This document shows positions 4,771-26,105 of a stretch of 40,481 bases of DNA, piece by piece. Both the position numbers and the translations under genes were made by a program. This DNA comes from Planktothrix mougeotii LEGE 06226 (GTDB lineage: Bacteria > Cyanobacteriota > Cyanobacteriia > Cyanobacteriales > Microcoleaceae): assembly GCF_015207485.1 (NCBI RefSeq), contig NZ_JADEWU010000005.1, forward strand, positions 116,508 through 156,988. Reading direction: 5' to 3'. The notes below the pieces were generated by a model. It saw only the letters and a list, made by a program, of their open reading frames with translations. It searched no databases and was not told the DNA's origin. Each line of letters opens with the position of its first letter. The first letter of the stretch is position 1.

Positions 4771-6381
4771 ATGGCTAAAATTATATTCTTTTTCCCAAGA
4801 AGGGTACTCAGTATATTGTCATTTTTGATCGTTTCCCCTATTCCCACCCTCGCCCAAGACCCAGACCCCCAAGCTCAAAACACTAACCCGACGTTAAAAA
4901 TCGGTGTAGTGCAACACTTTGGGCAAAAACCCACCGATCAACTCATTCTCAAAGCACAACCGGGAGATCACTTAACCCTTGGGTTCCAAACACCCCAAGG
5001 AAACAAAGAATTGCATACGGAGACGGTGATCCTGAAAATCGGCGTTGAACCCCTCCCTGAACCTGAAGTCGAGGAAAGGGTGGTTTTGAGTACCCATCGC
5101 AGCTATGAAAATGCCGAAGAAGACGCTCAAAAATGGCGATCGCTGGGTTTAAAAGTAGAATTAGCTCAACCGGATCGTTGGCAAGTTTGGGCGAAACGTA
5201 GCGTTTATAGTACCCCTCTGCTGCGACGTTGGTTAATCGATAGTTTACAAGCCCAAGGTCATAAAATCCCCAGTTTGGAAACCCAAGTTCTCACCGAAAA
5301 ACGTACCCCCTATTGGACAGCGGCAGGATATCGCTACAACCGTAATCAACTGGAGATTACAACCCCCCAGAATGTGATTCAAGTGAGTCAAAAACCGAAT
5401 GATCCCCAACCTTTAGTTTATGGGGGAAGTTTGCAACTACAACCCGATGCTTATGGAACCTACACCCTGGTTAATAACGTGCCATTAGAGACCTATTTGC
5501 GGGGCGTCGTGCCTCATGAAATTGGAGCTTGGCCCCCGGATGCGTCTATCGAAGCTCAAGCGGTTTTAGCGCGAACCTATGCGTTACGAAATCTGCGACG
5601 ATTTGAAGCAGATAATTATCATCTCTGTGCTAATACGGACTGTCAAGTGTATAAAGGATTAACGGAAGTTTATCCCAGTACGGATCAAGCGATTAATGTT
5701 ACAAACGGTTTAGTTTTAACCTATAACAATCAATTGACGGATGCGGTTTATTTTTCTACCAGTGGGGGAGTTACGGCGAATTATAATGATATTTGGAATG
5801 GGGAACCGCGACCTTATTTACAAGGAATTATTGATGCTCCGAATAAAATTTGGGATTTATCTCAACAAAATTTAGCATCAGAACAAAATTTTCGACGGTT
5901 TATGAATTTGCAAAAGGGATTTAATGAAACCGGAGAATATGATTTTCGTTGGCGAGAAGAAACAACGTTAGAATCAATGGCAGCCCATTTGCGTCTTTAC
6001 TTGAAACGCCGCAATTTGCCTAATTCTAATTTTAAGAATATTCAAAAGGTTGAGATTGTAGAGCGATCGCCAACGGGACGAGTTTTGAAAATGACGGTAA
6101 CGACCGATCAAGGGGTGTTAGAAATTTCTAAAGATGAAATCCAAAGTGCTTTTTTACCCCCGATTAGTACGTTATTTTATATTGATCCCGTTTACAACCC
6201 CAACAAAACCTTAAAAGGCTATGTTTTTGTTGGGGGTGGTTATGGACATGGGGTGGGTATGAGTCAAACGGGCTCCTATCACTTGGCTAAATTGGGATGG
6301 TCAAGCGAGGAAATTTTAAACTTTTACTTCCCTGGAACCCAACTACAACCGTTTAATACTGCGATGCAGTTGGGACAATAA
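4771..6381 (+). CDS. SpoIID/LytB domain protein (cell-wall amidase enhancer-like), secreted
   Basis: A signal peptide is present (MAKIIFFFPRRVLSILSFLIVSPIPTLAQ). The C-terminal motif is GYGHGVGMSQTGSYHLAKLGWSSEEILNFYFPGTQL. Upstream lies ...YLRGVVPHEIGAWP...AQAVLARTYALRN, typical of SpoIID/LytB. Confidence 0.8.
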   Translation: MAKIIFFFPRRVLSILSFLIVSPIPTLAQDPDPQAQNTNPTLKIGVVQHFGQKPTDQLILKAQPGDHLTLGFQTPQGNKELHTETVILKIGVEPLPEPEVEERVVLSTHRSYENAEEDAQKWRSLGLKVELAQPDRWQVWAKRSVYSTPLLRRWLIDSLQAQGHKIPSLETQVLTEKRTPYWTAAGYRYNRNQLEITTPQNVIQVSQKPNDPQPLVYGGSLQLQPDAYGTYTLVNNVPLETYLRGVVPHEIGAWPPDASIEAQAVLARTYALRNLRRFEADNYHLCANTDCQVYKGLTEVYPSTDQAINVTNGLVLTYNNQLTDAVYFSTSGGVTANYNDIWNGEPRPYLQGIIDAPNKIWDLSQQNLASEQNFRRFMNLQKGFNETGEYDFRWREETTLESMAAHLRLYLKRRNLPNSNFKNIQKVEIVERSPTGRVLKMTVTTDQGVLEISKDEIQSAFLPPISTLFYIDPVYNPNKTLKGYVFVGGGYGHGVGMSQTGSYHLAKLGWSSEEILNFYFPGTQLQPFNTAMQLGQ

Positions 6382-9727: not shown

Positions 9728-10687
9728 TTAGGTAGAATATTTTACTGTAGGAAGATGAACACCAACATAACCAATAATCACTTTTTCCGTTTTACGCTCT
9801 AGGAAAAAATGAATTCGCCAATTACATTGTTTCAGCTTAATATGTTGATCAAATAAACGTTCTTCCCCATCAGGACACAAAAAAGTTCGTTCTTTCCAAT
9901 ATTTATCAAGTGTTCGTTTACTTTCTCCAGAAACATCAAGAGAATATCCTTCTAAACTAAATTCTTTGCACCCTTGACTAATCCAAATTTCTGTATATTC
10001 TTCCAGTTGCTCTAAAGTTTTTAAAACCCATTTTAATTTAGCCTCTCCTGAACCAAGTATACGCAATTGTTTAGTACCTGTTTTACAAAATTGTAAATGT
10101 GAAAATAACTGATCTTTACGATTCCATAAATCATTGCCATCATATATTTCTCTTTGTGGATTTGGAGGTAAATAATGTCCCGGTATATTTTTAACTTGGT
10201 CAGCATTTATTAAATTATAAACCTCTATAATTTCTGAGGGATTTTCATCCAGCTTAAATAAGACATTGATCAATTCACTGGAGAAATCAGGTGCTTGCTG
10301 TAAACTAATCAAAATTCCTTGTAAGTATGCTGCACCAGCCAATGAACTTTCACAATAGTCTTCACCATTAAATTCGCATTCCCAATATAATAGTTCTTGA
10401 TTTAAAATATCTAAGATAAAAGGCCCATCTGTAAATAATTTAATCAATAATAATGCTTGCACTTGATCATGATCATTAGATAATGATTTTTCATACACCC
10501 AGTCTTTTACTGTATAGTTTTCTGTAATTTTGCAATTTGAAAATAATTCATGTATATAAATAGAATCATTTCCTAAAATGGGTTTAATTGCCTTGATAAC
10601 CTCTGCTAAAGCTTTCATCAGGGTGTCAGCATCATAAATATTTGTAGCTTGCCCAATAAAAGATAATTCGTTAATTAAGAAATTCAT
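9728..10687 (-). CDS. Hypothetical 319-aa protein, third gene of the DUF262-ATPase operon (no recognisable domain)
   Basis: Its start overlaps the ATPase stop by 1 bp (TAATG). The protein is acidic and Cys/Trp-containing (…CPDGEERLFDQHIKLKQCNWRIHFF…) with no motif I can assign. It sits in the same AT-rich block. Confidence 0.55.
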   Translation of the reverse strand: MNFLINELSFIGQATNIYDADTLMKALAEVIKAIKPILGNDSIYIHELFSNCKITENYTVKDWVYEKSLSNDHDQVQALLLIKLFTDGPFILDILNQELLYWECEFNGEDYCESSLAGAAYLQGILISLQQAPDFSSELINVLFKLDENPSEIIEVYNLINADQVKNIPGHYLPPNPQREIYDGNDLWNRKDQLFSHLQFCKTGTKQLRILGSGEAKLKWVLKTLEQLEEYTEIWISQGCKEFSLEGYSLDVSGESKRTLDKYWKERTFLCPDGEERLFDQHIKLKQCNWRIHFFLERKTEKVIIGYVGVHLPTVKYST

Positions 10688-11796
10688 TACATTAATTGGA
10701 TTAAATCTTTTTGAGTTTGATCAAAAAAACCAGCAGGCCATTTATTAATTCGACCATTTTTATCAATTTTTGGGGATATTATTTCTGTGATTAATTGTCC
10801 ATCCTCGTCTATCCGTTGAAAGTAGTTTAATTGAACATCTTCAGGTTTAATTTTACCATCATGAACCGCAAGACGAATTCCATTTAACACATGATCACTA
10901 TGGGTTTCTACAACAACTTGAACTCCACAACTTGCTGCAAGTGCTAACAGTTGACCCATTTTGGATTGTCCTTTAGGATGAAGATGGGCTTCTGGGTTTT
11001 CTATTAAAATGAGTGTTCCTGGTTTAGAGGATAATACAGCAACTATAATAGGCAACACATAACTAATCCCAAAACCTACATTAGTCGCACGATATAAATT
11101 ACTTAGTCCATAAGAGTATTCTAAACTTACTAAATCTAGTTGTGGATTATCATTAATTGTAATACGTGTTCCGGGGCTAATTTCTCCCATCCAGGCTTCA
11201 ACTTGAAATCCTAGTTTTAATGATTCTGCTGACGGGTGACTAAGTTCACTATTAGGAATAATTTTATCGCGATATAGTGCCAGGAAATGTGCTGTATATT
11301 CACCGCTAGTTCCGATTTGATTGTGCATCCGTACCTGAAAATCCGACTTTTTTAAATAAATACGAGGGCCAATTCGTTCAGCTTGTAGATAGTGGAAATT
11401 GTCCCCAAACAGATTTGATTGATAAATTTCAGAATTCACTTCAGGTGAAGTTAAATCGAGAACATCTGCCTCTTCATCATAATTAAAATACCACGTTCCT
11501 TGTAGTTTATTATTCCAAGTAATTGTAAAACCAATTGCATCTTCTTCTGCATCCTCGAATAAAGCATCTTTTGCTGTTCCAACACACACTAAATCACCAT
11601 TCAATGCTAATCCTGTTTCTGGTAACAAATCCTGTTGATAAGATTGGCGTAGTAATAGTAATGATTGCAATAACGAAGATTTTCCTGAACTATTCAAACC
11701 AGAAAGCAGAGTCAATGCTCCTAAACTAATCAATTGATCAGCAAAACATTTAAAATTTTTAAGATGAATTGAACTCATCATACTAGCTGAACTCAT
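10687..11796 (-). CDS. ABC-type AAA ATPase (AAA_21/AAA_15-like) with DUF3696-like C-terminus
   Basis: Walker A is LLSGLNSSGKSSLLQSL. Walker B/D-loop is GTLILIENPEAHLHP and the H-loop is VVVETHSDHVL. The C-terminal GRINKWPAGFFDQTQKDL resembles DUF3696. It is translationally coupled on both sides. Confidence 0.75.
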   Translation of the reverse strand: MSSASMMSSIHLKNFKCFADQLISLGALTLLSGLNSSGKSSLLQSLLLLRQSYQQDLLPETGLALNGDLVCVGTAKDALFEDAEEDAIGFTITWNNKLQGTWYFNYDEEADVLDLTSPEVNSEIYQSNLFGDNFHYLQAERIGPRIYLKKSDFQVRMHNQIGTSGEYTAHFLALYRDKIIPNSELSHPSAESLKLGFQVEAWMGEISPGTRITINDNPQLDLVSLEYSYGLSNLYRATNVGFGISYVLPIIVAVLSSKPGTLILIENPEAHLHPKGQSKMGQLLALAASCGVQVVVETHSDHVLNGIRLAVHDGKIKPEDVQLNYFQRIDEDGQLITEIISPKIDKNGRINKWPAGFFDQTQKDLIQLM

Positions 11797-12974
11797 GATG
11801 CTAACACCTCTTGAATAATCCTTTCTACTGTACTAAATCTCAAAGATACTTTTTCACCCGCTTGAGAAATAGATTTTAAAAAGTCCTTATCATTATCAAC
11901 TAAATAACTAAATTTTTGTTTTAACTCCTCTTTTCTTTTTTTAAGAATGTGTAATTCGGTATCATCAAGTTTACTCAGATTTACAGACCAGGCTTCAAAC
12001 AAGGCTTCATTAACAGGATATCTTCTTCCATTTTGATTTGAAATTTTTCTAAATGCAGTATCCCCAAAAATATCGTATGCTGCTATCATTGAACGCTTAA
12101 AACTATCTACAATTTCTTTTAATTTATCTTCAGATAAAGATTGATTAATTTCCTCCATTGTTTTATGAAAAAAATCATCTCTACTTTTAGATTGATAGTA
12201 ATCTTGATAATTATTAATTTTAAAAGCTAAAAATCCTAACACAAACTCCTGATCTATCATTCTCTTTTTTTTTCGAGATTTGTCAAGATTGGTAACTTTT
12301 TTAAATTCTTTCATGTTAGCTAATTTAGATAAAATTTTTGTAGCTTTTCCTTGGTTTAATGCGTTGCGAGTTTCTTGAGGGGAAAGAGGTACTCCTCCTG
12401 TATTGATACGTCTAAATATATTATATTTTACAGATGGAGGGGTACCTTCTTCAACAACATAAATTGTTAGTTGAGTCTCAAGTAAGCGACGTTGATACTT
12501 ACGAGGTAGTTCATCGTAAGTTTTTTCTTGAATATCAGTTAGATAATCTAATTCATCAGTTAACTTTAGTTCTTTATTTAAAATAAACTTTTTTAGTGCT
12601 GTTAATCGCTGTCGTCCATCAATAACTACCCATCGATCATCATCAGTCGCATCCATATAAAACGAAGGTAAGGGAATACGCAGAAGAATAGACTCTATTA
12701 ACTTACTCTGAGCTTTATCCGTCCAAATATCTGAACGCTGAAAAGAAGGTGCAAGATCAATCTCTCCATGATTAATCCTTGAAAGCACTAAATCAATCGT
12801 CATTTGTCGAGTATCAACTCTAATTTTAGTTGGATCAAATGGTTCATTAATTCCTTCATCATCTGCTTCAATTATATTGTCATCATCAAAATCTTCTAAA
12901 TCCATATCTGTCTGATACTCAATACCATCCTTTTCAATTTTTAATTCTAATTGCTCATTTTGCGAATTTATCAT
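11793..12974 (-). CDS. DUF262 (ParB/Srx-fold, GmrS-like) domain protein; first gene of a 3-gene defense-like operon
   Basis: It has the DGQQR-type hallmark ...RWVVIDGRQRLTALKKF. An acidic N-terminus precedes it. I did not recognise a DUF1524/HNH C-terminus. Its stop overlaps the start of the downstream ATPase (ATGA). Codon usage is AT-rich relative to chlN next door. Confidence 0.75.
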   Translation of the reverse strand: MINSQNEQLELKIEKDGIEYQTDMDLEDFDDDNIIEADDEGINEPFDPTKIRVDTRQMTIDLVLSRINHGEIDLAPSFQRSDIWTDKAQSKLIESILLRIPLPSFYMDATDDDRWVVIDGRQRLTALKKFILNKELKLTDELDYLTDIQEKTYDELPRKYQRRLLETQLTIYVVEEGTPPSVKYNIFRRINTGGVPLSPQETRNALNQGKATKILSKLANMKEFKKVTNLDKSRKKKRMIDQEFVLGFLAFKINNYQDYYQSKSRDDFFHKTMEEINQSLSEDKLKEIVDSFKRSMIAAYDIFGDTAFRKISNQNGRRYPVNEALFEAWSVNLSKLDDTELHILKKRKEELKQKFSYLVDNDKDFLKSISQAGEKVSLRFSTVERIIQEVLAS

Positions 12975-13027
12975 AATTGATCTATTTTTTTAAGGATATG
13001 AATATTTTTATTATAAACAACAAAGAG

Positions 13028-13062
13028 GGCGATCGCATTCGATCACCCTTTTTATTATACTA
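13028..13062 (-). terminator. Putative rho-independent terminator downstream of chlN
   Basis: On the minus strand the sequence reads AGGGTGATCGAATGCGATCGCCCT followed by CTTTGTTGTTT. That is a 10-bp stem with a single G·U/mismatch, followed by a U-rich run. It lies between the chlN stop and the DUF262 operon start. Confidence 0.4.
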
Positions 13063-13080: not shown

Positions 13081-14499
<1,419 letters not shown>

Positions 14500-14607: not shown

Positions 14608-16110
14608 TTATTTAAAATCCGACAGGGAAATTTCGTCATCATCTGAAGAACCGGTTAATCCGTCGATATCAATATCGTCCATATCTCCAGTTGTTAAATC
14701 ACCCATATCGTCGAGATTAAAATCCCCTAAATCATCGGATGAAAAATCATCATCCCCTAATCCTAAATCGTCTAAATTATCTCCGGTATCGAGATCCAGG
14801 CCATCGGAAGCGTTATCTTCCCCCAATCCTAAATCACCGAGATCATCATCCAGACTTGAATCTGTATCTTCTAATTCCAACCCTCCTAAATCATCAGAAC
14901 CAAGGTCGTCAGCTTCTAGGCTGATTTCTCCATCTAAGTCATCTGCGGCTAAAACTTCCGACTCTAAGCTGAGATCGTCCATTCCATCTGAACCCAGATC
15001 ATCGGAGGATTCCAAACCAAAATCGATATCATCGCTTATCTCCGTGTCTTCACCCAGTTCCGTATTAACGTTGTCGTCCCAGACATCAGATTCGGTATCA
15101 ATGTCTAATTCAGCCGATTCCGTTTGCGAATCTAAGCTCAAATCGAAATCATCAGCACCCATCTCATCGGAATCTAAACCCATGTCCAGGTCATCAGCAC
15201 CCATCTCATCGGAATCTAAACCCATGTCTAGGTCATCAGCGCCCATCTCATCGGAATCTAAACCCATGTCTAGGTCATCAGCGCCCATCTCATCGGAATC
15301 TAAGCCCATGTCCAGGTCATCAGCACCCATCTCATCGGAATCTAAGCCCATGTCTAGGTCATCAGCACCCATCTCATCGGAATCTAAGCCCATGTCTAGG
15401 TCATCAGCACCTAGGGCTTCTGATTCATCCTCCAACCCTAGATCAAAGTCTTCCTCGGCTACGCTAGCCGTCTCTGTGTCGATATCTAAATCCAGATCCC
15501 CATCGACATCAGTGTCCTCCATTGCCTCTGCATCCAGATCATCCATTCCGAAATCATCATCCATGCCGGAATCATCTAGGCCCATCTCATCAATGGTGAT
15601 TTCTTCTTCGGTCTCAAGCTCGAGTTCATCGGAGTCATCCAGGGTATCGGCAATCACCGCAGCCCCTCCAACAACAGCGGCAGCACTGGCAACGGCCACG
15701 GCAGCACCCGCTATATTGGGTTGTTCTACCAGAGTCACTTCCTCCTCTAAATTCAGTGTCTCTGGAGGGGCCGGAGGAACCGGAGTTGGCGTTGGAACAA
15801 CTACCGTTGCAGATTCTCCTGGGGTAGGCCTAATGCCCAACGCTATATCGGGATCAAAATTCAGCCCTAAAACATCAATCAGTTTTTCAGGATCTGGATT
15901 GAGTTTAGAAAAGGGCAACATGAGTTGGGCTGCCTCTGGGTCAAGCGCGTTGATCGTTCCCAAAATGAGGGAGGAGGCGGGTCTTCGACCCCCATCGGGG
16001 GTCGGTATTGAATTCAAATCCATTTGCAGTACCAGCCACTCTCGATTGGCTTGGTAATATTGCAACCACTTATCTTTAAGCGCGGTGGTAAAGTCTTTGA
16101 AGAAAGCCAT
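14608..16110 (-). CDS. Hyper-acidic repeat protein: conserved N-terminal ~120-aa domain, Pro-rich linker, Ala-rich hydrophobic segment, about 330-aa Asp/Glu-rich low-complexity tail with 6 tandem 14-aa repeats (GADDLDMGLDSDEM)
   Basis: It lies on the same strand as chlL and chlN and is wedged between them (36 bp after the chlL stop, 120 bp before the chlN start). A 500-aa ORF is kept open through the perfect 42-bp repeats. The N-terminus is MAFFKDFTTALKDKWLQYYQANREWLVLQM…. The hydrophobic segment is NIAGAAVAVASAAAVVGGAAVIA. Confidence 0.7.
   Translation of the reverse strand: MAFFKDFTTALKDKWLQYYQANREWLVLQMDLNSIPTPDGGRRPASSLILGTINALDPEAAQLMLPFSKLNPDPEKLIDVLGLNFDPDIALGIRPTPGESATVVVPTPTPVPPAPPETLNLEEEVTLVEQPNIAGAAVAVASAAAVVGGAAVIADTLDDSDELELETEEEITIDEMGLDDSGMDDDFGMDDLDAEAMEDTDVDGDLDLDIDTETASVAEEDFDLGLEDESEALGADDLDMGLDSDEMGADDLDMGLDSDEMGADDLDMGLDSDEMGADDLDMGLDSDEMGADDLDMGLDSDEMGADDLDMGLDSDEMGADDFDLSLDSQTESAELDIDTESDVWDDNVNTELGEDTEISDDIDFGLESSDDLGSDGMDDLSLESEVLAADDLDGEISLEADDLGSDDLGGLELEDTDSSLDDDLGDLGLGEDNASDGLDLDTGDNLDDLGLGDDDFSSDDLGDFNLDDMGDLTTGDMDDIDIDGLTGSSDDDEISLSDFK
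15151..15410. repeat. 42-bp near-perfect tandem repeat (6 full copies plus partial copies)
   Basis: The unit is atcagcacccatctcatcggaatctaa(a/g)cccatgtc(c/t)aggtc. Copies start at 15151, 15193, 15235, 15277, 15319 and 15361. It is in frame within the acidic-protein CDS and encodes GADDLDMGLDSDEM. It has no spacer structure and is not CRISPR-like. Confidence 0.9.
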
Positions 16111-16146
16111 AACCTCTATATCCTCATCCTGAGATAGCTAGACATA

Positions 16147-17013
16147 TTAAACCATCATCAGGTCTAGCTCATCTTCCTGACTTTGAACAAGGGGTTGAGT
16201 CGGATTTAGATAAAAATCTGATAACAAGGTGAATAAATCCCGATCTGGCGCGTCTTGAGGAACTACTCCTTCGGGTTGTGACAGCAGTTGATCGGCAATA
16301 TTCAGATAATAATCACAAACGTAGTTGAGGGATGGATCACTTTCGGCCATCTCAAATAAGGTTTTTCCTTTCACGCGGGACACCCGAATGTCCTCGATTA
16401 AGGGTAATACCTCTAAAACAGGCATGGGAACAGATTCAATATATTTTTCAATCAGATCCCGTTTAGAGGTGCGATTTCCGATTAATCCTGCTAATCGTAA
16501 AGGGTGGGTACGGGATTTTTCCCGGACTGAGGCGGCGATGCGGTTGGCTGCAAATAGGGCATCAAAGCCATTATCGGTGACAATGACGCAATAGTCGGCA
16601 TAGTTGAGGGGGGCAGCAAACCCACCACAAACCACGTCCCCTAAAACGTCAAACAGAATCACATCGTATTCGTCAAAGGCGTTGAGTTCTTTGAGGAGTT
16701 TGACGGTTTCTCCCACAACGTAACCGCCACATCCTGCACCTGCTGGAGGGCCACCTGCTTCGACGCAATCGACACCCCCATAGCCTTTATAGATCACGTC
16801 TTCTGGCCAAATATCTTCGTAATGAAAGTCTTTTTCCTGCAAGGTATCAATAATCGTGGGAATTAAAAATCCTGTGAGGGTAAAGGTGCTGTCGTGTTTG
16901 GGATCGCAGCCAATTTGCAGGACTTTTTTACCTCGTTTGGCTAAAGCGGCTGAGATATTACAGCTTGTGGTTGATTTACCAATTCCGCCTTTACCGTAGA
17001 CTGCTAATTTCAC
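16147..17013 (-). CDS. chlL: Light-independent protochlorophyllide reductase iron-sulfur ATP-binding protein
   Basis: [59 protein letters not shown]… is the NifH-like P-loop. At 288 aa the length is canonical for ChlL. Confidence 0.93.
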
Positions 17014-17545
17014 GCTGGCTTCTCCTTAATCGGTTTTTATTAAAAACTGTTGACGGTTGACTGCTGGAGCAGTGGGTTTTCTGGTTCGATACAGCCATTA
17101 TTGGCATAACTACCCCAGAAAATAAAGGGGCAAGTTTAATGGATTGAGCTATAAAATCAAGCTTTATCGTTTATTAAAAAATTATTTTAATTTAATCAAC
17201 TCAGAATCAGGTTCAAGCGTTATTTTAAATAAATTATTTATTTTATATTATTTTTTTTATAAAAATAGTTACAATAAGCAAAAAAATAAAATACAAGTGT
17301 CTGCAACGTTAAAAAAGTTACCCCCACTGATCACCCCTGAGTCAAGAGGATTAGGAGTCTTGACCAATAGTTTCCTTGGGTAAAATTTTGATGAATATTA
17401 AATCTTTCCGGTGTAATTGAGGAATTTTTTCAAAAAATAACTAAGCAATTGTACTGATTATTTTCAGGAAAAACCTTTAAAAATCTCAGGATCAAAACCA
17501 ACGGAGTTAAATGTTAATTTTTGCAAAATTCTCTCAATCACAGTC

Positions 17546-17592
17546 AAAAGTGAAAAGTGAAAAGTGAAAAGTGGAACGGGCGTCCCGCCCGT
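17546..17592. repeat. Heptamer tandem repeat (AAAAGTG x4, STRR-like) followed by a short GC hairpin (ACGGGCG-TCC-CGCCCGT)
   Basis: I read these directly. The units are at 17546-17573 and the hairpin at 17576-17592. They lie in the long chlL upstream region. Confidence 0.6.
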
Positions 17593-17820
17593 CAAAAGTC
17601 TTCAAAAGTCAGAAGTTGCTGGAAAACAGGCAAGATGCCTGTTCCACGGTGAGATGAGCGATCGCCAATCAGTAAAAATTAAAATCAAGACTGATAATGC
17701 TGATAGCCATGAAGATTTTAGAAGACTATATGATTGTTACCCGTCAGTCATGATAACGGAACCTTTATCGCTTACGTTCCAGCAATTTTGGGTTATCATG
17801 CTTGTTATCTGCATTTTAAC

Positions 17821-17877
17821 TGATAACTGATAATGCGGATACTTGATAACTGATAATGCGGATACTTGATAACTGAT
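17821..17877. repeat. 23-bp direct repeat x2.5 (TGATAACTGATAATGCGGATACT) rich in GATAA(T/C) hexamers
   Basis: Copies are at 17821-17843 and 17844-17866, with a partial copy at 17867-17877. They sit immediately 3' of the TpsB stop codon. More TGATAA motifs occur at 17688-17700 and 17751-17760. Confidence 0.7.
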
Positions 17878-19703
17878 TAAGGGGTATAAGTGACACCAAA
17901 ATAAATCCCATCATCTTGAAGATTATTGCCTCGATCATCAATACCAATGAGGGGAAGCCCATAATCAACACGGAGATTTAACCCGGAAACCGGTTGCCAA
18001 ATTACGCCTAATCCTGCACCTGCTAAAAAAGTTTTACCAATAATGCGGTTAGGATTTCTGTCATTGTTCCAAACTCCACCAAAATCAATAAAGGGAGCTA
18101 GTTGAAATACAGGTTCAGAGTCTTGATTTCGATCTAGGGTAATGCGATCTTCGAGGGAAATCCGAAAGCCATTATCCCCAGCCCGGACGTTTTGACGATA
18201 TCCTCTCAAAGATAGTGCTCCTCCAATCACAAATTGTTGGGAAGGAAATAACGGATCAGCCGATAGTTGAATATCTCCTTGAGCAATTAATAGATTATCT
18301 TCCCCTAATCGTTGTACCCGTTGGACTTGACCCAACCAACTGAAAAAGGAAGCATTCGGTGTACTGACATCCGTAGCGCCGAGAATATCTAAACCCAGGT
18401 TAAATTGCGATCGCAAGGCCCAAGCTCCTTCCGGATCACGAATTACATAATCCTGTCCAAACTTCAAAACACTGGTGCGCGTATACCCGTTACTATCTGG
18501 CCCGGATGCAAAAGGTTCTCCGTTATTATCTAAAAGGGTTTGACTATCTTGATAGGCAAAGCCAAAGGATAACGCAAATTCGGTGATAGGGTTACGAATA
18601 ATCGGCTGACGATAACTAATTTCATAACGTTGAGATTTTCCTTCAATATTCAACGCATCAAAGGGATCTTGAATAATGCGGTTTTGGTAAGGTTGGACTC
18701 GCAATTGTATCGTTCCGTTCATGGGGTTGATGGGAATACTATACAAAGCGTCGATAATATCCGACTCCCCATCCGCAATTAAGCGAGTCGTATTGTAGGA
18801 CAGTCCCAGAAAGTCTCCCCGACCCGTGAGGTTAAGATGACGCACACTAATCCCCATACGTTCAGAACCAATACTGGGGGGGGAATAGTTATCAATATTC
18901 AGACTCACCCCGAAAGGCGGTGCTTCCACAACTCGAACAATTAGAATACTCTGGCCTTCTTGGGTTCCCGCTCTTAAACTAGCTTCTACGCTTTCAAATA
19001 AGGGATTAATCCGTAACAGTCGCAATTGATCTTCTAAGGAGGCGGTACTCAGGGGTTTTTCCGCACCTAAACGAATGCGACTGGTGATATAGGACGGATG
19101 GAGGCGTTTGATTCCTTCAACTTCAATATTTTCTAAGGTTCCTTCAATCACCTGAATCTCAACAATGCCATTGTTAATGGTTTGTTCAGGAACAATAGCC
19201 CTAGAGGTAATGTAACCTCGTTCTAAATAAATCGCTGTAATTTTATCGGCGAGTTCCCGCAGTTCCGTCAGAGTCACAGAACGATTTTCTAGGGGGGTAA
19301 CTAAGGTTTGAAGTTCCTCTGAAGTGAGAATTGTGCTACCTGTAACGTTAATTTTTTGAACGGGAATGGGGGTTTCATCTGTGGGTGGGTTCGGCGTTGG
19401 GCTAGGAGTGGGAGTGGGTTGTAACTCTGGGTTATTGGGGGGTTCCGGTTTAGGCGGAATAGGAGGTCGTGGTAAAAATCGATCTTTGTTGGGATCGGGT
19501 TGGGGAACTTGGGGCGGAATATTAATTGATCCGCCTTGGGCCAAAGTCGGACAATTTTGGCGATCGCACAACTCCCCAGTCGCAGCAAAGGAACGAGTTT
19601 GAGAAAGACCTTGACGAGAAAATAGGGATAAAACCAGCAATAGGGTACTGGTTAAAATCACTCCACACTGACGAAAATGAATCAGATTTTCACTCCTACC
19701 CAT
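17877..19703 (-). CDS. ShlB/FhaC/HecB-family two-partner-secretion outer-membrane transporter (TpsB) with POTRA domain
   Basis: A signal peptide is present and a Pro-rich linker follows (PQVPQPDPNKDRFLPRPPIPPKPEPP…). There is a POTRA-like region (INVTGSTILTSEELQTLVTPLENRSVTLTELRELADKITAIYLERGYITSRAIVPEQ). The C-terminal beta-barrel ends in aromatic residues (…DGIYFGVTYTP). Confidence 0.8.
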   Translation of the reverse strand: MGRSENLIHFRQCGVILTSTLLLVLSLFSRQGLSQTRSFAATGELCDRQNCPTLAQGGSINIPPQVPQPDPNKDRFLPRPPIPPKPEPPNNPELQPTPTPSPTPNPPTDETPIPVQKINVTGSTILTSEELQTLVTPLENRSVTLTELRELADKITAIYLERGYITSRAIVPEQTINNGIVEIQVIEGTLENIEVEGIKRLHPSYITSRIRLGAEKPLSTASLEDQLRLLRINPLFESVEASLRAGTQEGQSILIVRVVEAPPFGVSLNIDNYSPPSIGSERMGISVRHLNLTGRGDFLGLSYNTTRLIADGESDIIDALYSIPINPMNGTIQLRVQPYQNRIIQDPFDALNIEGKSQRYEISYRQPIIRNPITEFALSFGFAYQDSQTLLDNNGEPFASGPDSNGYTRTSVLKFGQDYVIRDPEGAWALRSQFNLGLDILGATDVSTPNASFFSWLGQVQRVQRLGEDNLLIAQGDIQLSADPLFPSQQFVIGGALSLRGYRQNVRAGDNGFRISLEDRITLDRNQDSEPVFQLAPFIDFGGVWNNDRNPNRIIGKTFLAGAGLGVIWQPVSGLNLRVDYGLPLIGIDDRGNNLQDDGIYFGVTYTP

Positions 19704-23131: not shown

Positions 23132-23863
23132 TTATAATTCACGCAATATTGTTTCGATCACCACATCGGGAAGACCAAGCAATTGAGCAATTTGGCATAG
23201 TTCGATACCTTGACTGTGCAATTTGCAAACGACATCAGCGACATCAATTTCGAGACGTTCGATCTGAGTTTTGAATCTGGAGTCAGTAGGATCATTATTG
23301 TCAGAGTCGCTAGGCGGAGAAAGACAGGGGTTGAGGTTGAGGGTGTGGACGTATTCGACATATTGAATATAATCTCTGCCGAAGTTTGAATTATTGCTAA
23401 TATTTCTGCGATCTATAGCAGCTTTGAGATTACCTTTTTGCATATCTTCATCCATAACTACCGAGAGAGTTTTGAGTAACTTGTAGCCGACTTCTCGGAC
23501 ATATTTGGTAGTGTAGCGGGTGTCACGGGCTATCGCTTCGTAGGTTTTGCCATCATACATTCCCTGAAACACTAGCTGTTGTAGCGTGTTGAGATGTTTG
23601 CCCGTTTTCTCGAAGATCAGGCAATCGACCAATTTCAGCAGTTCGTTTTCGTCAGGGACGGCTTGCAACGGGCGATCCTCCTTGGGGAGCTTATGTTGAG
23701 TCAAGGAAAAATAAAATTGTGTAAAACTTCGGGCTTTTTCAGGCTTTTTCAGGCTTTTTTGGTCAAGACAAATGCAATCAAGGTCAGGTATAGTAGTCAC
23801 AAATTTATCTGAGCGAAAGTGAGACACAATGCCTGACAATTTAGCTTTGTTAGAAAAGAACAA
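23132..23863 (-). CDS. Putative HTH transcriptional regulator (sigma-70 region-4/LuxR-like helix-turn-helix)
   Basis: LNTLQQLVFQGMYDGKTYEAIARDTRYTTKYVREVGYKLLKTL resembles sigma-70 r4/ECF-type HTH (L.ERQR.V..L...EG.SYEEIA..LG.S.GTVKSR...A.KKL). A second helical HTH-like segment is near the C-terminus. The true start may be the internal TTG at 23668, preceded by AAGGAGG at an 8-nt spacing. That start would remove the 35-bp overlap with the divergent RTX gene. Confidence 0.5.
   Translation of the reverse strand: MFFSNKAKLSGIVSHFRSDKFVTTIPDLDCICLDQKSLKKPEKARSFTQFYFSLTQHKLPKEDRPLQAVPDENELLKLVDCLIFEKTGKHLNTLQQLVFQGMYDGKTYEAIARDTRYTTKYVREVGYKLLKTLSVVMDEDMQKGNLKAAIDRRNISNNSNFGRDYIQYVEYVHTLNLNPCLSPPSDSDNNDPTDSRFKTQIERLEIDVADVVCKLHSQGIELCQIAQLLGLPDVVIETILREL
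23731..23760. repeat. 10-bp tandem repeat x3 ((G/A)GGCTTTTTC) in the divergent intergenic region between the HTH gene and the RTX gene
   Basis: I read it directly: gggctttttc aggctttttc aggctttttt. Confidence 0.55.
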
Positions 23864-26105
23864 TGACTTACTGAATGGTAGCAGTGCAGAAAGTCAGGAG
23901 GATTGCGGCTGTCCCTTCAAAAAAGCCCCGACGGTCGAAGCGGTATCGAATGCTCAGAATGTCCAGAGTATCCTTAACTTTGGGAGTAACGATACGCTAG
24001 AAGGCTCTGTCACGCAAGAGATATTAAATGCTAACACAGGAAGTGAATTTCTCCCCAGTTCTGCTGCGAATATCAGGCGATCGGCTTCTCAAGTCGGTGG
24101 TGGCTCACTTTCGAGCGATGGTAGTGCATATATTTTAACCGAGGGAAGCGACACATTTACGATTCCCCTTGGCTTGCTCGATACTCTATTGGGCGGTTTG
24201 CGGGGTTTAGGCGGTGCGGATTCGATTACGGGTTCGGAATCTGGGGATATCGTCTATGGCGATGAAGGGGATGACAGAATTGAGGGCCTCGGTGGTGCTG
24301 ATTTGTTCTACGGTGGTGCGGGCAACGATTTTCTGAGTGGCGGTGCGGGTCAAAATGGTCTCCTTGGCGGTGATGGTGCAGACACTTTGCAGGGTGGTGA
24401 AAGTGCTGATGGTGTCAATGGAAATATGGGTGATGACGTAATTTTAGGTGCAGGCGGAAACGACTTTTTGCGGGGTGGTCGCGGTAACGATATTGTCAAT
24501 GGGGAAGATGGGGATGACTTAGTAATCGGCGATTTTGGCAATGATACTTTGACTGGTGGTGCGGGTCAAGATGTGTTTTTTCTGCGCCATGAGGAGGCTT
24601 TAGGCTCTCCTACTTTTGATTTAATTACCGACTTTCAAAGAACAATTGATTTCATCGGACTTAGTACAAATCTTCGGGAATCTGATGTTATTTTGGAGTC
24701 GAAAGTGCAGCCTTCTGGTGGTTCGGCTGTGGATATTAAAGTGGCTGCAACAGGGACTTTGTTAGGTACAGTTTTGGGAGTCGCACCAGAGGATTTAAGA
24801 GGTCGATTCAGACCTTATGATGTGGAAGGAGAGCGTCCTGAAGATGTAGCGACAATTGATTTACCAGAAGTAACAAAGCTATCTGAAAATAGATTTCAGA
24901 TGGAATTTCCGGCGAGTGATGGTAGCAAATATACAGTTATTTTTCAAGATGATGCTGACGGACGTTTCGTAGAATCAGTTATATTTGTACCCAATCCTAC
25001 AACGGGTGTTCGTGGTAGTACAACGCTTTTCAATCGAGATGGTACACAGGCGGATATCACTCTTGAAGGCTCTAATGAAACTGTACGAGTTGAGAATCAA
25101 AAGAGTCAAGAACCTGGAAAGCCGGATCAAGGTGTTATATCGCGGATCAAAGATGGTCAGATTTTTGATACTGTAACTTTTCCTCTGCCAATTGAGCCGA
25201 CCGTACCTCCTAATCCTGAGCCACCAGTTACTCCTCCCCCAGTTGGGCCAGATTTTGCGAAAGCTTGTGATTCGGTTAAAGACTTTTGCATGAAAGTTAA
25301 CGACCTGGGTAAAGTGATTGATACAGTTGCTCTTGGGTTGGCAGTTGGTGGTGTAGTATTTCTTCCCCTTGAACTTGCTGCCGGAGCAGCGGAGGCAGTG
25401 GCTATTTCACTTAAAGTCGTTAAGTACAGTTGTATATTGCTTACGGGTAGTGATATGGATTTAGGTTTGAGTGCGATTAGTGATTTGTTTGGACAGGTAG
25501 TTAAGAGGTCTGGCGACCTGGAGGAATTAGCCCAACCAGATTACAAACAAATAAACGAGATCAGGTATTCTGGTGCTATGCTCATTGATTCATTTCGGGA
25601 AAAGGAGCCAACAGCCTCTAAATTAGACTTTTTGCCTCAGTTCCGAAAGTGGCTTACTGACAAGACGGGTAAGCCATTTGACTTTTGTGATAAACCTGCG
25701 ACTACTCCTGAACCAGAACCAACTTGTTTGCCAGGAGGAGGTTCAGACATTAAAGTAGAACTCATCCCTGACCGCATCCCCTACGGACAAACGGCACAAT
25801 ACACAATGACATACTGCGATCCACAAAATGACATAGACAATTTTCTCGTAGAACTTAATACAAGAAGTGGAACACAAACCAAAATCATTCCCGTTTCATC
25901 TTCCAGTGGAACGATAAGTTTTGGGATACGAAACAAGCCAAACGCTTTTGGGGACTGTTTTACATCAGGTCAATACGTGAGTGTTTCAGCTAGAAGTGGC
26001 AGTCGTGACTTAAATTCTATTGCAAATTTCACAAATTTTGGTCTTGATGGTGGATTAACTGGTAGATTCGACATTAACGGTGTGTGTGATGTAGAGTTGG
26101 TTTAA
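23829..26105 (+). CDS. RTX (hemolysin-type) calcium-binding nonapeptide-repeat protein with Pro-rich linker and C-terminal domain containing a hydrophobic segment
   Basis: GGxGxDxUx repeats are present: GGADSITGSESGDIVYGDEGDDRIEGLGGADLFYGGAGNDFLSGGAGQNGLLGGDGADTLQGGESADGVNGNMGDDVILGAGGNDFLRGGRGNDIVNGEDGDDLVIGDFGNDTLTGGAGQD. The linker is PPNPEPPVTPPPVGP. There is no N-terminal signal peptide. GC content is locally higher. Confidence 0.75.
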   Translation: MPDNLALLEKNNDLLNGSSAESQEDCGCPFKKAPTVEAVSNAQNVQSILNFGSNDTLEGSVTQEILNANTGSEFLPSSAANIRRSASQVGGGSLSSDGSAYILTEGSDTFTIPLGLLDTLLGGLRGLGGADSITGSESGDIVYGDEGDDRIEGLGGADLFYGGAGNDFLSGGAGQNGLLGGDGADTLQGGESADGVNGNMGDDVILGAGGNDFLRGGRGNDIVNGEDGDDLVIGDFGNDTLTGGAGQDVFFLRHEEALGSPTFDLITDFQRTIDFIGLSTNLRESDVILESKVQPSGGSAVDIKVAATGTLLGTVLGVAPEDLRGRFRPYDVEGERPEDVATIDLPEVTKLSENRFQMEFPASDGSKYTVIFQDDADGRFVESVIFVPNPTTGVRGSTTLFNRDGTQADITLEGSNETVRVENQKSQEPGKPDQGVISRIKDGQIFDTVTFPLPIEPTVPPNPEPPVTPPPVGPDFAKACDSVKDFCMKVNDLGKVIDTVALGLAVGGVVFLPLELAAGAAEAVAISLKVVKYSCILLTGSDMDLGLSAISDLFGQVVKRSGDLEELAQPDYKQINEIRYSGAMLIDSFREKEPTASKLDFLPQFRKWLTDKTGKPFDFCDKPATTPEPEPTCLPGGGSDIKVELIPDRIPYGQTAQYTMTYCDPQNDIDNFLVELNTRSGTQTKIIPVSSSSGTISFGIRNKPNAFGDCFTSGQYVSVSARSGSRDLNSIANFTNFGLDGGLTGRFDINGVCDVELV

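Follow-up and report, generated by a model that had tools for sequence, protein, structure and literature searches.

Gene X of Planktothrix mougeotii is a DUF5331-family gene with a long acidic repeat tail in the conserved slot between chlL and chlN

Introduction

The dark-operative protochlorophyllide oxidoreductase (DPOR) counts as a three-subunit enzyme, and how this O2-sensitive reductase keeps working in oxygen-evolving cells is still discussed. In the portions of a 2026 Chem Rev review available to us, DPOR is described as a two-component system, BchL/ChlL and BchNB/ChlNB, with which no NifB-like cofactor-synthesis protein is associated (PMC13474568). Neither those portions nor the available portions of Fujita's 2015 review name an accessory protein or mention an accessory open reading frame (ORF) of DPOR. 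Here we describe gene X, a 500-amino-acid (aa) ORF situated between chlL and chlN of Planktothrix mougeotii LEGE 06226. It lies in a 40,481-nucleotide (nt) stretch of contig NZ_JADEWU010000005.1, which we refer to as the window; unless a locus of another genome is named, all coordinates below are positions in that window.

An RNA-seq study of Nostoc PCC 7120 listed the "chlL, chlN operon, all5076-all5078" as one co-regulated unit (PMC7699953). Because chlN is all5076 and chlL is all5078 in Anabaena (PMC4915528), all5077 would be the ortholog of X by position; the supplements of the latter study contain none of the locus tags. Across the literature that we searched (chlL/chlN operon, frxC/ORF467, DPOR accessory factors), we found no description of an ORF between chlL and chlN and no mention of DUF5331 or all5077. 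As far as can be told from the portions of these sources available to us, both the family-level synteny of X and its retention after DPOR decay, reported below, are undescribed.

Results

Gene X occupies positions 14608..16110 on the minus strand, begins with ATG, and encodes 500 aa. It is separated from chlL by 36 bp and from chlN by 120 bp, with all three genes on the same strand, confirming the coordinates and gaps that had been proposed in an earlier, sequence-only reading of this DNA. Residues 1 to 99 of the product match Pfam family PF17265 (DUF5331) over model positions 1 to 99 of 113, scoring 154 bits against a cut-off of 27, and no NCBIfam model matches the whole protein. When 5.8 billion proteins were searched with full-length X, 103 homologs were recovered and every one of them (103/103) carries PF17265. 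The best homologs, which are metagenomic, are 64 to 65% identical to X overall, and Planktothrix agardhii and Planktothrix rubescens entries named "DUF5331 domain-containing protein" are 54 to 59% identical. Within the N-terminal domain alone (N-domain), the nearest genome reaches 96% identity to the window. A further candidate homolog (P0171; 1745 aa, 25 partial matches) was rejected as a spurious repeat match. Scanning 1.84 billion cluster representatives without a profile, with only the N-domain as query, retrieved 283 clusters at E≤1e-3, 185 of them at E≤1e-10. These results show that X is a genuine coding gene and the Planktothrix-lineage ortholog of the cyanobacterial DUF5331 family. It belongs to a catalogued but functionally blank family and is orthologous to the Planktothrix proteins already annotated as DUF5331. 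The sequence-only reading had suggested that homologs lacking the N-domain would point to a spurious repeat expansion; we observed the opposite: all 103 homologs retain the domain, and it is the tail that is the dispensable, lineage-specific part.

The DUF5331 domain itself (aa 1 to 95; 15826..16110) is modeled as five to six helices plus a small hairpin. AlphaFold2, run on an alignment of the N-domain, gave a predicted local distance difference test (pLDDT) score of 86.9 and a predicted template-modeling score of 0.75, placing helices at residues 2 to 21, 23 to 32, 46 to 56, 58 to 70, and 74 to 81 and the hairpin around an invariant TPDGGRRP motif. A comparison of this model with solved structures found no relative. 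The alignment contains 30 invariant columns, occupied by Lys, Trp, Asn, Arg, Pro, Gly, and hydrophobic residues; given that neither Cys nor His is among them, the domain is not a metal or cluster ligand. The earlier reading had placed a globular domain of about 120 aa here, and while a folded N-terminal domain was borne out, the Pfam match and the model shorten it to about 95 aa.

To place the gene in its genomic context, we scanned one genome per species and found at least 491 genomes that encode a DUF5331 relative; synteny was then assessed on the best 80 loci. In all 80 of these, the ortholog follows chlL on the same strand, and chlN lies downstream of it in every locus that extends far enough and has an intact DPOR. 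The 80 loci span the Oscillatoriales, Nostocales, and Chroococcidiopsidales and include Planktothrix, Limnospira/Arthrospira, Lyngbya, Limnoraphis, Floridaenema, Phormidium, Geitlerinema, and Halomicronema, many Nostocales (Calothrix, Dolichospermum, Scytonema, and Fischerella), and a metagenome-assembled genome (MAG) of the Chroococcidiopsidaceae. The chlL-X spacer measures 23 to 37 nt in most Microcoleaceae and Nostocales orthologs. The same slot is filled by tail-less DUF5331 genes in four unicellular cyanobacteria. Gloeothece PCC 7424 and Crocosphaera subtropica ATCC 51142 encode single proteins of 121 and 150 aa there, Geminocystis herdmanii has three tandem single-domain genes encoding 131, 132, and 144 aa (locus L087, 4345..5860), and Microcystis wesenbergii has a single protein in which the DUF5331 domain occurs twice (locus L090, 4001..4732). 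The Geminocystis triplet and the two-domain Microcystis protein imply that the domain has been duplicated repeatedly in place. We conclude that chlL-DUF5331-chlN is a widely conserved cyanobacterial arrangement, present in at least four orders, and that its constant element is the N-domain rather than the tail. The sequence-only reading had called the placement of X striking for this genome and proposed comparing the chlL-chlN interval among cyanobacteria; that comparison instead reveals a position that the family holds in general.

Within the family, we define a chlL-X-chlN subfamily by a same-strand position between chlL and chlN together with an acidic tail that ends in a conserved tip, and X displays both features. 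The tail varies by lineage: it is missing in the unicellular forms, comprises about 150 moderately acidic residues in the Nostocales (only 20 to 30% acidic), and reaches 200 to 400 residues in the Microcoleaceae. Related X-type orthologs share a tail composition of 36 to 46% Asp plus Glu (D+E) with 0 to 7 basic residues. One contig with a typical cyanobacterial chlL-DUF5331-chlN locus is labeled "MAG: Actinomycetota bacterium" (L021; JBLNEP010000148.1); its ChlL is 93% identical to that of the window, and the contig is probably mis-binned.

We next consider the remainder of the protein, all of it encoded on the minus strand. Beyond the N-domain, a variable linker of 24% Pro (aa 96 to 132; 15715..15825; pLDDT about 35) leads into a hydrophobic Ala/Gly/Val segment (aa 133 to 155; 15646..15714), whose Kyte-Doolittle hydropathy averages 2.2 over 19 residues, and then into a polyanionic tail (aa 156 to 500; 14611..15645). 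Residues 171 to 500, a stretch of 330 aa, contain 135 D+E against a single Lys or Arg, which amounts to 41% D+E and a net charge of about -134; the corresponding values for the whole protein are 163 D+E against 10 Lys plus Arg and a net charge of about -153. This 330-aa stretch matches no Pfam family even at E≤1. In a full-length AlphaFold2 model, block-mean pLDDT over residues 97 to 500 is 30 to 56 and no secondary structure is assigned, the hydrophobic segment included. The anatomy outlined by the sequence-only reading (N-domain, Pro-rich linker, Ala-rich segment, acidic repeat tail) was thus recovered, and its suggestion of a disordered tail agrees with the model. The hydrophobic segment, in which one Gly is nearly invariant, is found in most Oscillatoriales orthologs, is absent from the Nostocales, and is weak in the Oscillatoria acuminata/Laspinema group.

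Two short motifs recur in the tails of the family. An SDVW motif at aa 341 to 344 (15079..15090) belongs to a pattern, [STRL]D[VIEAS]W, that is present in the tails of 40 of 72 complete orthologs, from Planktothrix to the Nostocales. The protein ends in an acidic-hydrophobic tip, SDDDEISLSDFK (14611..14646), which is identical in the Planktothrix orthologs P0001 and P0003 to P0043 and reads SDDEEISLSDFK in P0002. Related tips close 59 of the 72 complete orthologs, for instance ..DPEISNLLSDLE in Phormidium/Geitlerinema and ..DDSEIARLFPN in the Nostocales.

To gauge selection on these regions, we computed the ratio of nonsynonymous to synonymous substitution rates (dN/dS) for the X of the window against four Planktothrix genomes. 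The ratio was 0.04 to 0.15 in the N-domain, 0.33 to 0.63 in the linker plus hydrophobic segment (aa 96 to 160), and 0.13 to 0.16 in the acidic region distal to the repeat array, and the closest relatives do not differ from one another in the last 40 residues. X is therefore under purifying selection, tail included, and a tail needing acidity alone would tolerate far more replacement than is seen. Taking together its pLDDT, the recurrence and spacing of its motifs, and its dN/dS, the tail is best described as a predicted intrinsically disordered region with short linear motifs.

The most conspicuous part of the tail is an in-frame tandem array of 42-bp units, six perfect and one degenerate (15118..15411). 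Tandem Repeats Finder reported a 42-bp period with 6.8 copies, 94% matches, and 0 indels over 15128..15411. The six perfect 14-aa units, GADDLDMGLDSDEM, span aa 234 to 317 (15160..15411) and are followed by a seventh, degenerate unit, GADDFDLSLDSQTE. The six perfect repeats announced by the sequence-only reading hold for the protein; at the DNA level, the copies differ at three third-codon positions (GGT/GGC, CTA/CTG, GGC/GGT), all synonymous. Such synonymous-only differences argue for translation in the frame of X and against a collapsed-repeat artifact, a possibility that the same reading had raised. Its prediction that copy number varies between strains also held. P. agardhii/P. rubescens protein clusters of 407, 421, 435, 449, and 463 aa correspond to 3, 4, 5, 6, and 7 units, and in the nearest relatives of the window, its own type of repeat is present in three to five units.

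Tandem arrays occur in 43 of the 80 ortholog coding sequences, with periods from 15 to 204 nt, and the period of the top array is divisible by 3 in all 43; Nostocales orthologs mostly have no array. Motifs differ by genus (LDMGL in the window, LDMSL in P. agardhii, MDLGL in Arthrospira, MDMDL/LGLDM in Lyngbya, MGLDL in Halomicronema), and LDMGL, LDMSL, MDLGL, and MGLDL recur in arrays of different periods in different genera. Hydrophobic residues of these tails avoid adjacency (z, -4 to -6) and favor i,i+2 spacing (z, +2 to +4). These data show that the tail grows and shrinks by in-frame tandem duplication of an acidic-hydrophobic motif with the core [LM]-[DG]-[LM]-[GS]-L flanked by Asp. In six of the loci (L002, L003, L007, L020, L041, and L047), the part of the ortholog encoding the acidic tail is interrupted by runs of N or by a truncation or frameshift of the ORF. 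Since several public assemblies break or are masked there, the exact copy number in any short-read assembly, that of the window included, is uncertain, and lengths annotated in databases are not all reliable.

Several genomes carry the gene apart from an intact DPOR. In the Dolichospermum MAG OTE_75 (L049, 3750..5029) and the related isolate ST_sed8 (L068, 891..1079), what is left of chlL is its last ~75 codons and of chlN ~30 codons; the deletions flank X and spare it. In the Nostocales MAG ELA583 (L051, 3170..5188), a frameshift disrupts chlL and an internal deletion has removed part of chlN, with boundaries unlike those of L049. X is intact in all three, with dN/dS values of 0.19 to 0.35, including 0.19 between L049 and L068, each of which has no more than a remnant of chlL. 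Given that two Nostocales lineages keep X intact while chlL and chlN have decayed, the role of X is not strictly tied to DPOR.

Members of the family also occur at loci away from the DPOR genes. Nostocales have a second DUF5331 protein (603 matches) of 270 to 380 aa, whose tail is not acidic and whose C-terminal motif reads ..SWVDEFCQG..W..EE.IFIPF. In all four genomes inspected (L081, L083, L088, and L089; gene at 6001 or 4001 onward), its gene lies downstream of a PALP-family (cysteine-synthase-like) gene, and in three of the four, a gene for a thioredoxin-like [2Fe-2S] ferredoxin separates the two; the one such protein scanned directly matches PF01257 with 28.6 bits (cut-off, 24.8). The paralog locus is a second association of the DUF5331 domain with an Fe-S protein. 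Co-inheritance with DPOR, as expected of an accessory protein or fourth subunit, was not observed, because X outlives the decay of chlL and chlN and has paralogs at non-DPOR loci.

The organization of the locus points to a single transcription unit. X follows chlL, which encodes the DPOR Fe protein (16147..17013, minus strand; TIGR01281, 485 bits; PF00142), and precedes chlN, which encodes a subunit of the catalytic component (13081..14487, minus strand; PRK02842, 666 bits). The 36-bp spacer between chlL and X (16111..16146) contains a purine-rich sequence resembling a Shine-Dalgarno (SD) site (GAGGA...GAGG) before the ATG, and an SD-like AAGAGGA stands 9 nt ahead of the ATG of chlN. Just after chlN lies a hairpin resembling an intrinsic terminator (13026..13049, minus strand; 10-bp stem with 6 GC, T-rich tail), the only minus-strand terminator-like site detected from the start of chlL to just beyond the chlN stop, with none inside the cluster. 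Given the tight gaps, the SD-like sequence before X, and a strong terminator-like site after chlN but no internal one on that strand, chlL-X-chlN is likely co-transcribed in the window. The sequence-only reading had called co-transcription almost certain and had named an internal terminator as evidence to the contrary; these features, together with the Nostoc RNA-seq unit (PMC7699953), support it as likely.

Upstream, 863 bp of unusually long non-coding sequence (17014..17876) separates chlL from a TpsB gene, a two-partner-secretion transporter of the ShlB/FhaC type (17877..19703, minus strand; POTRA_2 plus ShlB). This stretch holds one weak sigma-70-like promoter match on the chlL strand (17274..17247), and promoter-like matches in the region are no commoner than in shuffled sequence. 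No Rfam family or tRNA was found in the window, this stretch included, and a search of the window for a second DUF5331 copy found none. A plus-strand ORF of 337 aa (15044..16057) was rejected as a gene, being a Ser-rich shadow of the acidic repeat with a repeating SSAPISSESKPMSR unit. Directly downstream of chlN is a complete three-gene NsnABC anti-phage defense system (9728..12974, minus strand), with PADLOC scores of 433 (NsnA), 438 (NsnB), and 197 bits (NsnC) and the Pfam domains GmrSD_N and AAA_15/AAA_21/DUF3696. In Gloeothece citriformis PCC 7424 (L085, 6908..10107), chlN is followed by three genes that match these in size and Pfam domains, and in Microcystis (L090) by AAA_15/21 plus RloB. 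The window also encodes a 758-aa protein with RTX (HemolysinCabind) repeats (23829..26105, plus strand).

Discussion

The explanation that we favor overall, with somewhat better than even confidence, is that X is the DUF5331 ortholog of the chlL-X-chlN slot and probably acts as a non-catalytic adaptor. The adaptor role itself we infer with modest confidence. Docking by the N-domain would involve a partner in the ChlL, Fe-S, or ferredoxin neighborhood, a placement proposed because the tight spacing of the two genes would have X produced alongside ChlL. With many copies of the acidic-hydrophobic linear motif plus the C-terminal tip on display, the tail would bind or sequester a basic partner or cations, by a logic like that of the SSB and ribosomal P-stalk acidic tails, with repeat number tuning the valency. 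Being absent in unicellular forms, short in the Nostocales, and maximal in the Microcoleaceae, the tail would be a lineage-specific elaboration, and for this reason the core function would be expected in the N-domain. A bolder proposal, which we offer tentatively and would not bet on, is that DUF5331 is a cyanobacteria-specific partner of the nitrogenase-like DPOR/Fe-S-ferredoxin network, equipped with a tunable multivalent tail in filamentous lineages. It might, for example, be an adaptor with a part in escorting or gating electron donors or in protecting the ChlL cluster in an oxygenic cell. If this were true, the retention of X after DPOR loss and the paralog beside a ferredoxin would point to a role broader than DPOR, in Fe-S/ferredoxin or protochlorophyllide handling.

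Other readings of X, not all of them mutually exclusive, have to be weighed against an adaptor. X could be a dedicated fourth component of DPOR, that is, an assembly, stabilization, or O2-protection factor for ChlL and/or ChlN-ChlB, which would parallel the small accessory ORFs of nif operons. The strictly conserved chlL-X-chlN order in at least four orders, the spacing of 23 to 37 nt to chlL in most lineages, and the co-regulation of all5076-all5078 (PMC7699953) all speak for such a role. Set against them are the loci where X stays intact and constrained beside chlL and chlN fragmented by different deletions (L049 with L068, and L051), the paralogs away from DPOR genes, and a domain that offers no Cys or His ligands. 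DPOR is, moreover, active in vitro without X, and Synechocystis slr0749 and slr0750 are adjacent, with no X-type gene known between them. Charge pairing with the tail is improbable as well, because the putative partners are themselves acidic (computed pI, 4.6 for ChlL and 5.6 for ChlN). On balance, we regard a dedicated DPOR component as conceivable but doubtful. At the other extreme, X might be no gene at all but a spurious ORF produced by repeat expansion or mis-assembly between chlL and chlN. The breaks and masking of several public assemblies in the tail (the six loci listed above) speak for such an artifact, but strong purifying selection acts on domain and tail, the repeat copies differ only synonymously, hundreds of orthologs share the architecture, and all arrays are in frame. 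This reading is effectively refuted already, and we assign it a negligible probability.

Two further readings start from the composition of the C-terminal regions. The tail could be a high-capacity, low-affinity buffer or store for Ca2+, Mg2+, or other metals, with the N-domain merely localizing it, and the sequence-only reading had indeed credited the tail with features of Ca2+ or metal binding. Any polyanion that is 41% D+E, with a single basic residue and a net charge near -134, will bind divalent cations in vitro, and external Ca2+ elicits a response of the chlL and chlN transcripts in Anabaena (PMC4915528). We found no positive support for storage, however: the tail has no EF-hand, RTX, Excalibur, TSP3, or calsequestrin-type match in Pfam at E≤1, whereas the RTX protein of the window, serving as a positive control, was recognized at 72.8 bits. 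Residue-level constraint on the tail (dN/dS, 0.13 to 0.16) and its hydrophobic motif grammar would not be expected of a pure charge store, and as sequence features they appear to fit motif-mediated binding better than bulk cation storage. Nor can storage be the core role of the family, because unicellular orthologs lack the tail and that of the Nostocales is just 20 to 30% acidic. We therefore consider a cation buffer unlikely. Less probable still is a membrane anchor, in which the Ala/Gly/Val segment (aa 133 to 155) would form a transmembrane helix tethering the N-domain and tail at the thylakoid or plasma membrane or on its two opposite sides. Its hydropathy is above the usual transmembrane thresholds, and similar segments with a nearly invariant Gly occur in most Oscillatoriales orthologs. 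But AlphaFold2 gives no helix there (pLDDT about 30 to 36), both flanks are strongly acidic and lack Lys/Arg, contrary to the positive-inside rule, and the segment is missing or weak in the lineages noted above. There is also no signal peptide, and with a transmembrane topology, about 345 residues with a charge of about -134 would have to be exported. The non-catalytic adaptor remains the reading that we prefer.

These findings bear on more than one question. Insofar as the available portions of the reviews are a guide, DPOR has no named accessory protein, and a small domain kept between chlL and chlN across at least four orders is a concrete candidate for a missing DPOR partner, one accessible to genetics in tractable strains such as Anabaena/Nostoc PCC 7120 (all5077 by position). 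The tail, for its part, clearly exemplifies how, in nature, a disordered polyanionic region can evolve through in-frame tandem duplication while under residue-level constraint, and it could serve as a model for the tuning of valency in disordered proteins. Repeat copy number differs among bloom-forming Planktothrix strains and could be used as a strain marker.

Acidic, disordered tails that end in a docking tip are found in the C-terminal tail of SSB and in ribosomal stalk P1/P2 or L7/L12-type tethers. By analogy, X resembles these in having a folded N-terminal domain, a long acidic linker predicted to be flexible, and a C-terminal acidic-hydrophobic peptide that is conserved, with multivalency supplied by the repeats; it shares no sequence or fold homology with them, and its tail is far longer and more acidic. 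With calsequestrin-type and RTX/EF-hand proteins X has in common a very high Asp/Glu content and Gly- and Asp-rich repeats, but its repeat lacks the GGxGxD or DxDxDG signature of Ca-binding repeats, and no folded domain is predicted in its tail. Its composition would be compatible with a calsequestrin-like store, although it has neither the predicted folded domain nor the Pfam match. A looser analogy may be drawn with the small ORFs of nif operons (NifT/NifW/NifZ, FeSII/Shethna, and CowN; PMC6428710), which, as we propose for X, are non-catalytic and sit in the operon of a nitrogenase-type, O2-sensitive two-component reductase. X differs from them in showing no homology and no Fe-S ligands and in persisting after the reductase genes decay.

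Closer to hand, the DUF5331 proteins of unicellular cyanobacteria share both domain and slot with X but are only 107 to 150 aa long and have no polyanionic tail; they carry a short charged C-terminal helix motif, ..DPDTEYLNKIRQE, or are tandemly duplicated as genes or domains. The nearest described counterparts are the P. agardhii DUF5331 proteins of 407 to 449 aa, which match X in the linker, the Ala/Gly segment, the acidic 14-aa repeats, the ...SDDDEISLSDFK end, and the chlL/chlN slot. X differs from these in its repeat, GADDLDMGLDSDEM rather than DDLDMSLESDELES, and in a shorter Pro-rich linker, and with 500 aa it stands at the long end of the 407 to 507 aa found among its close relatives in the Planktothrix group. 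The X of the window is, in sum, an extreme but ordinary representative of its family.

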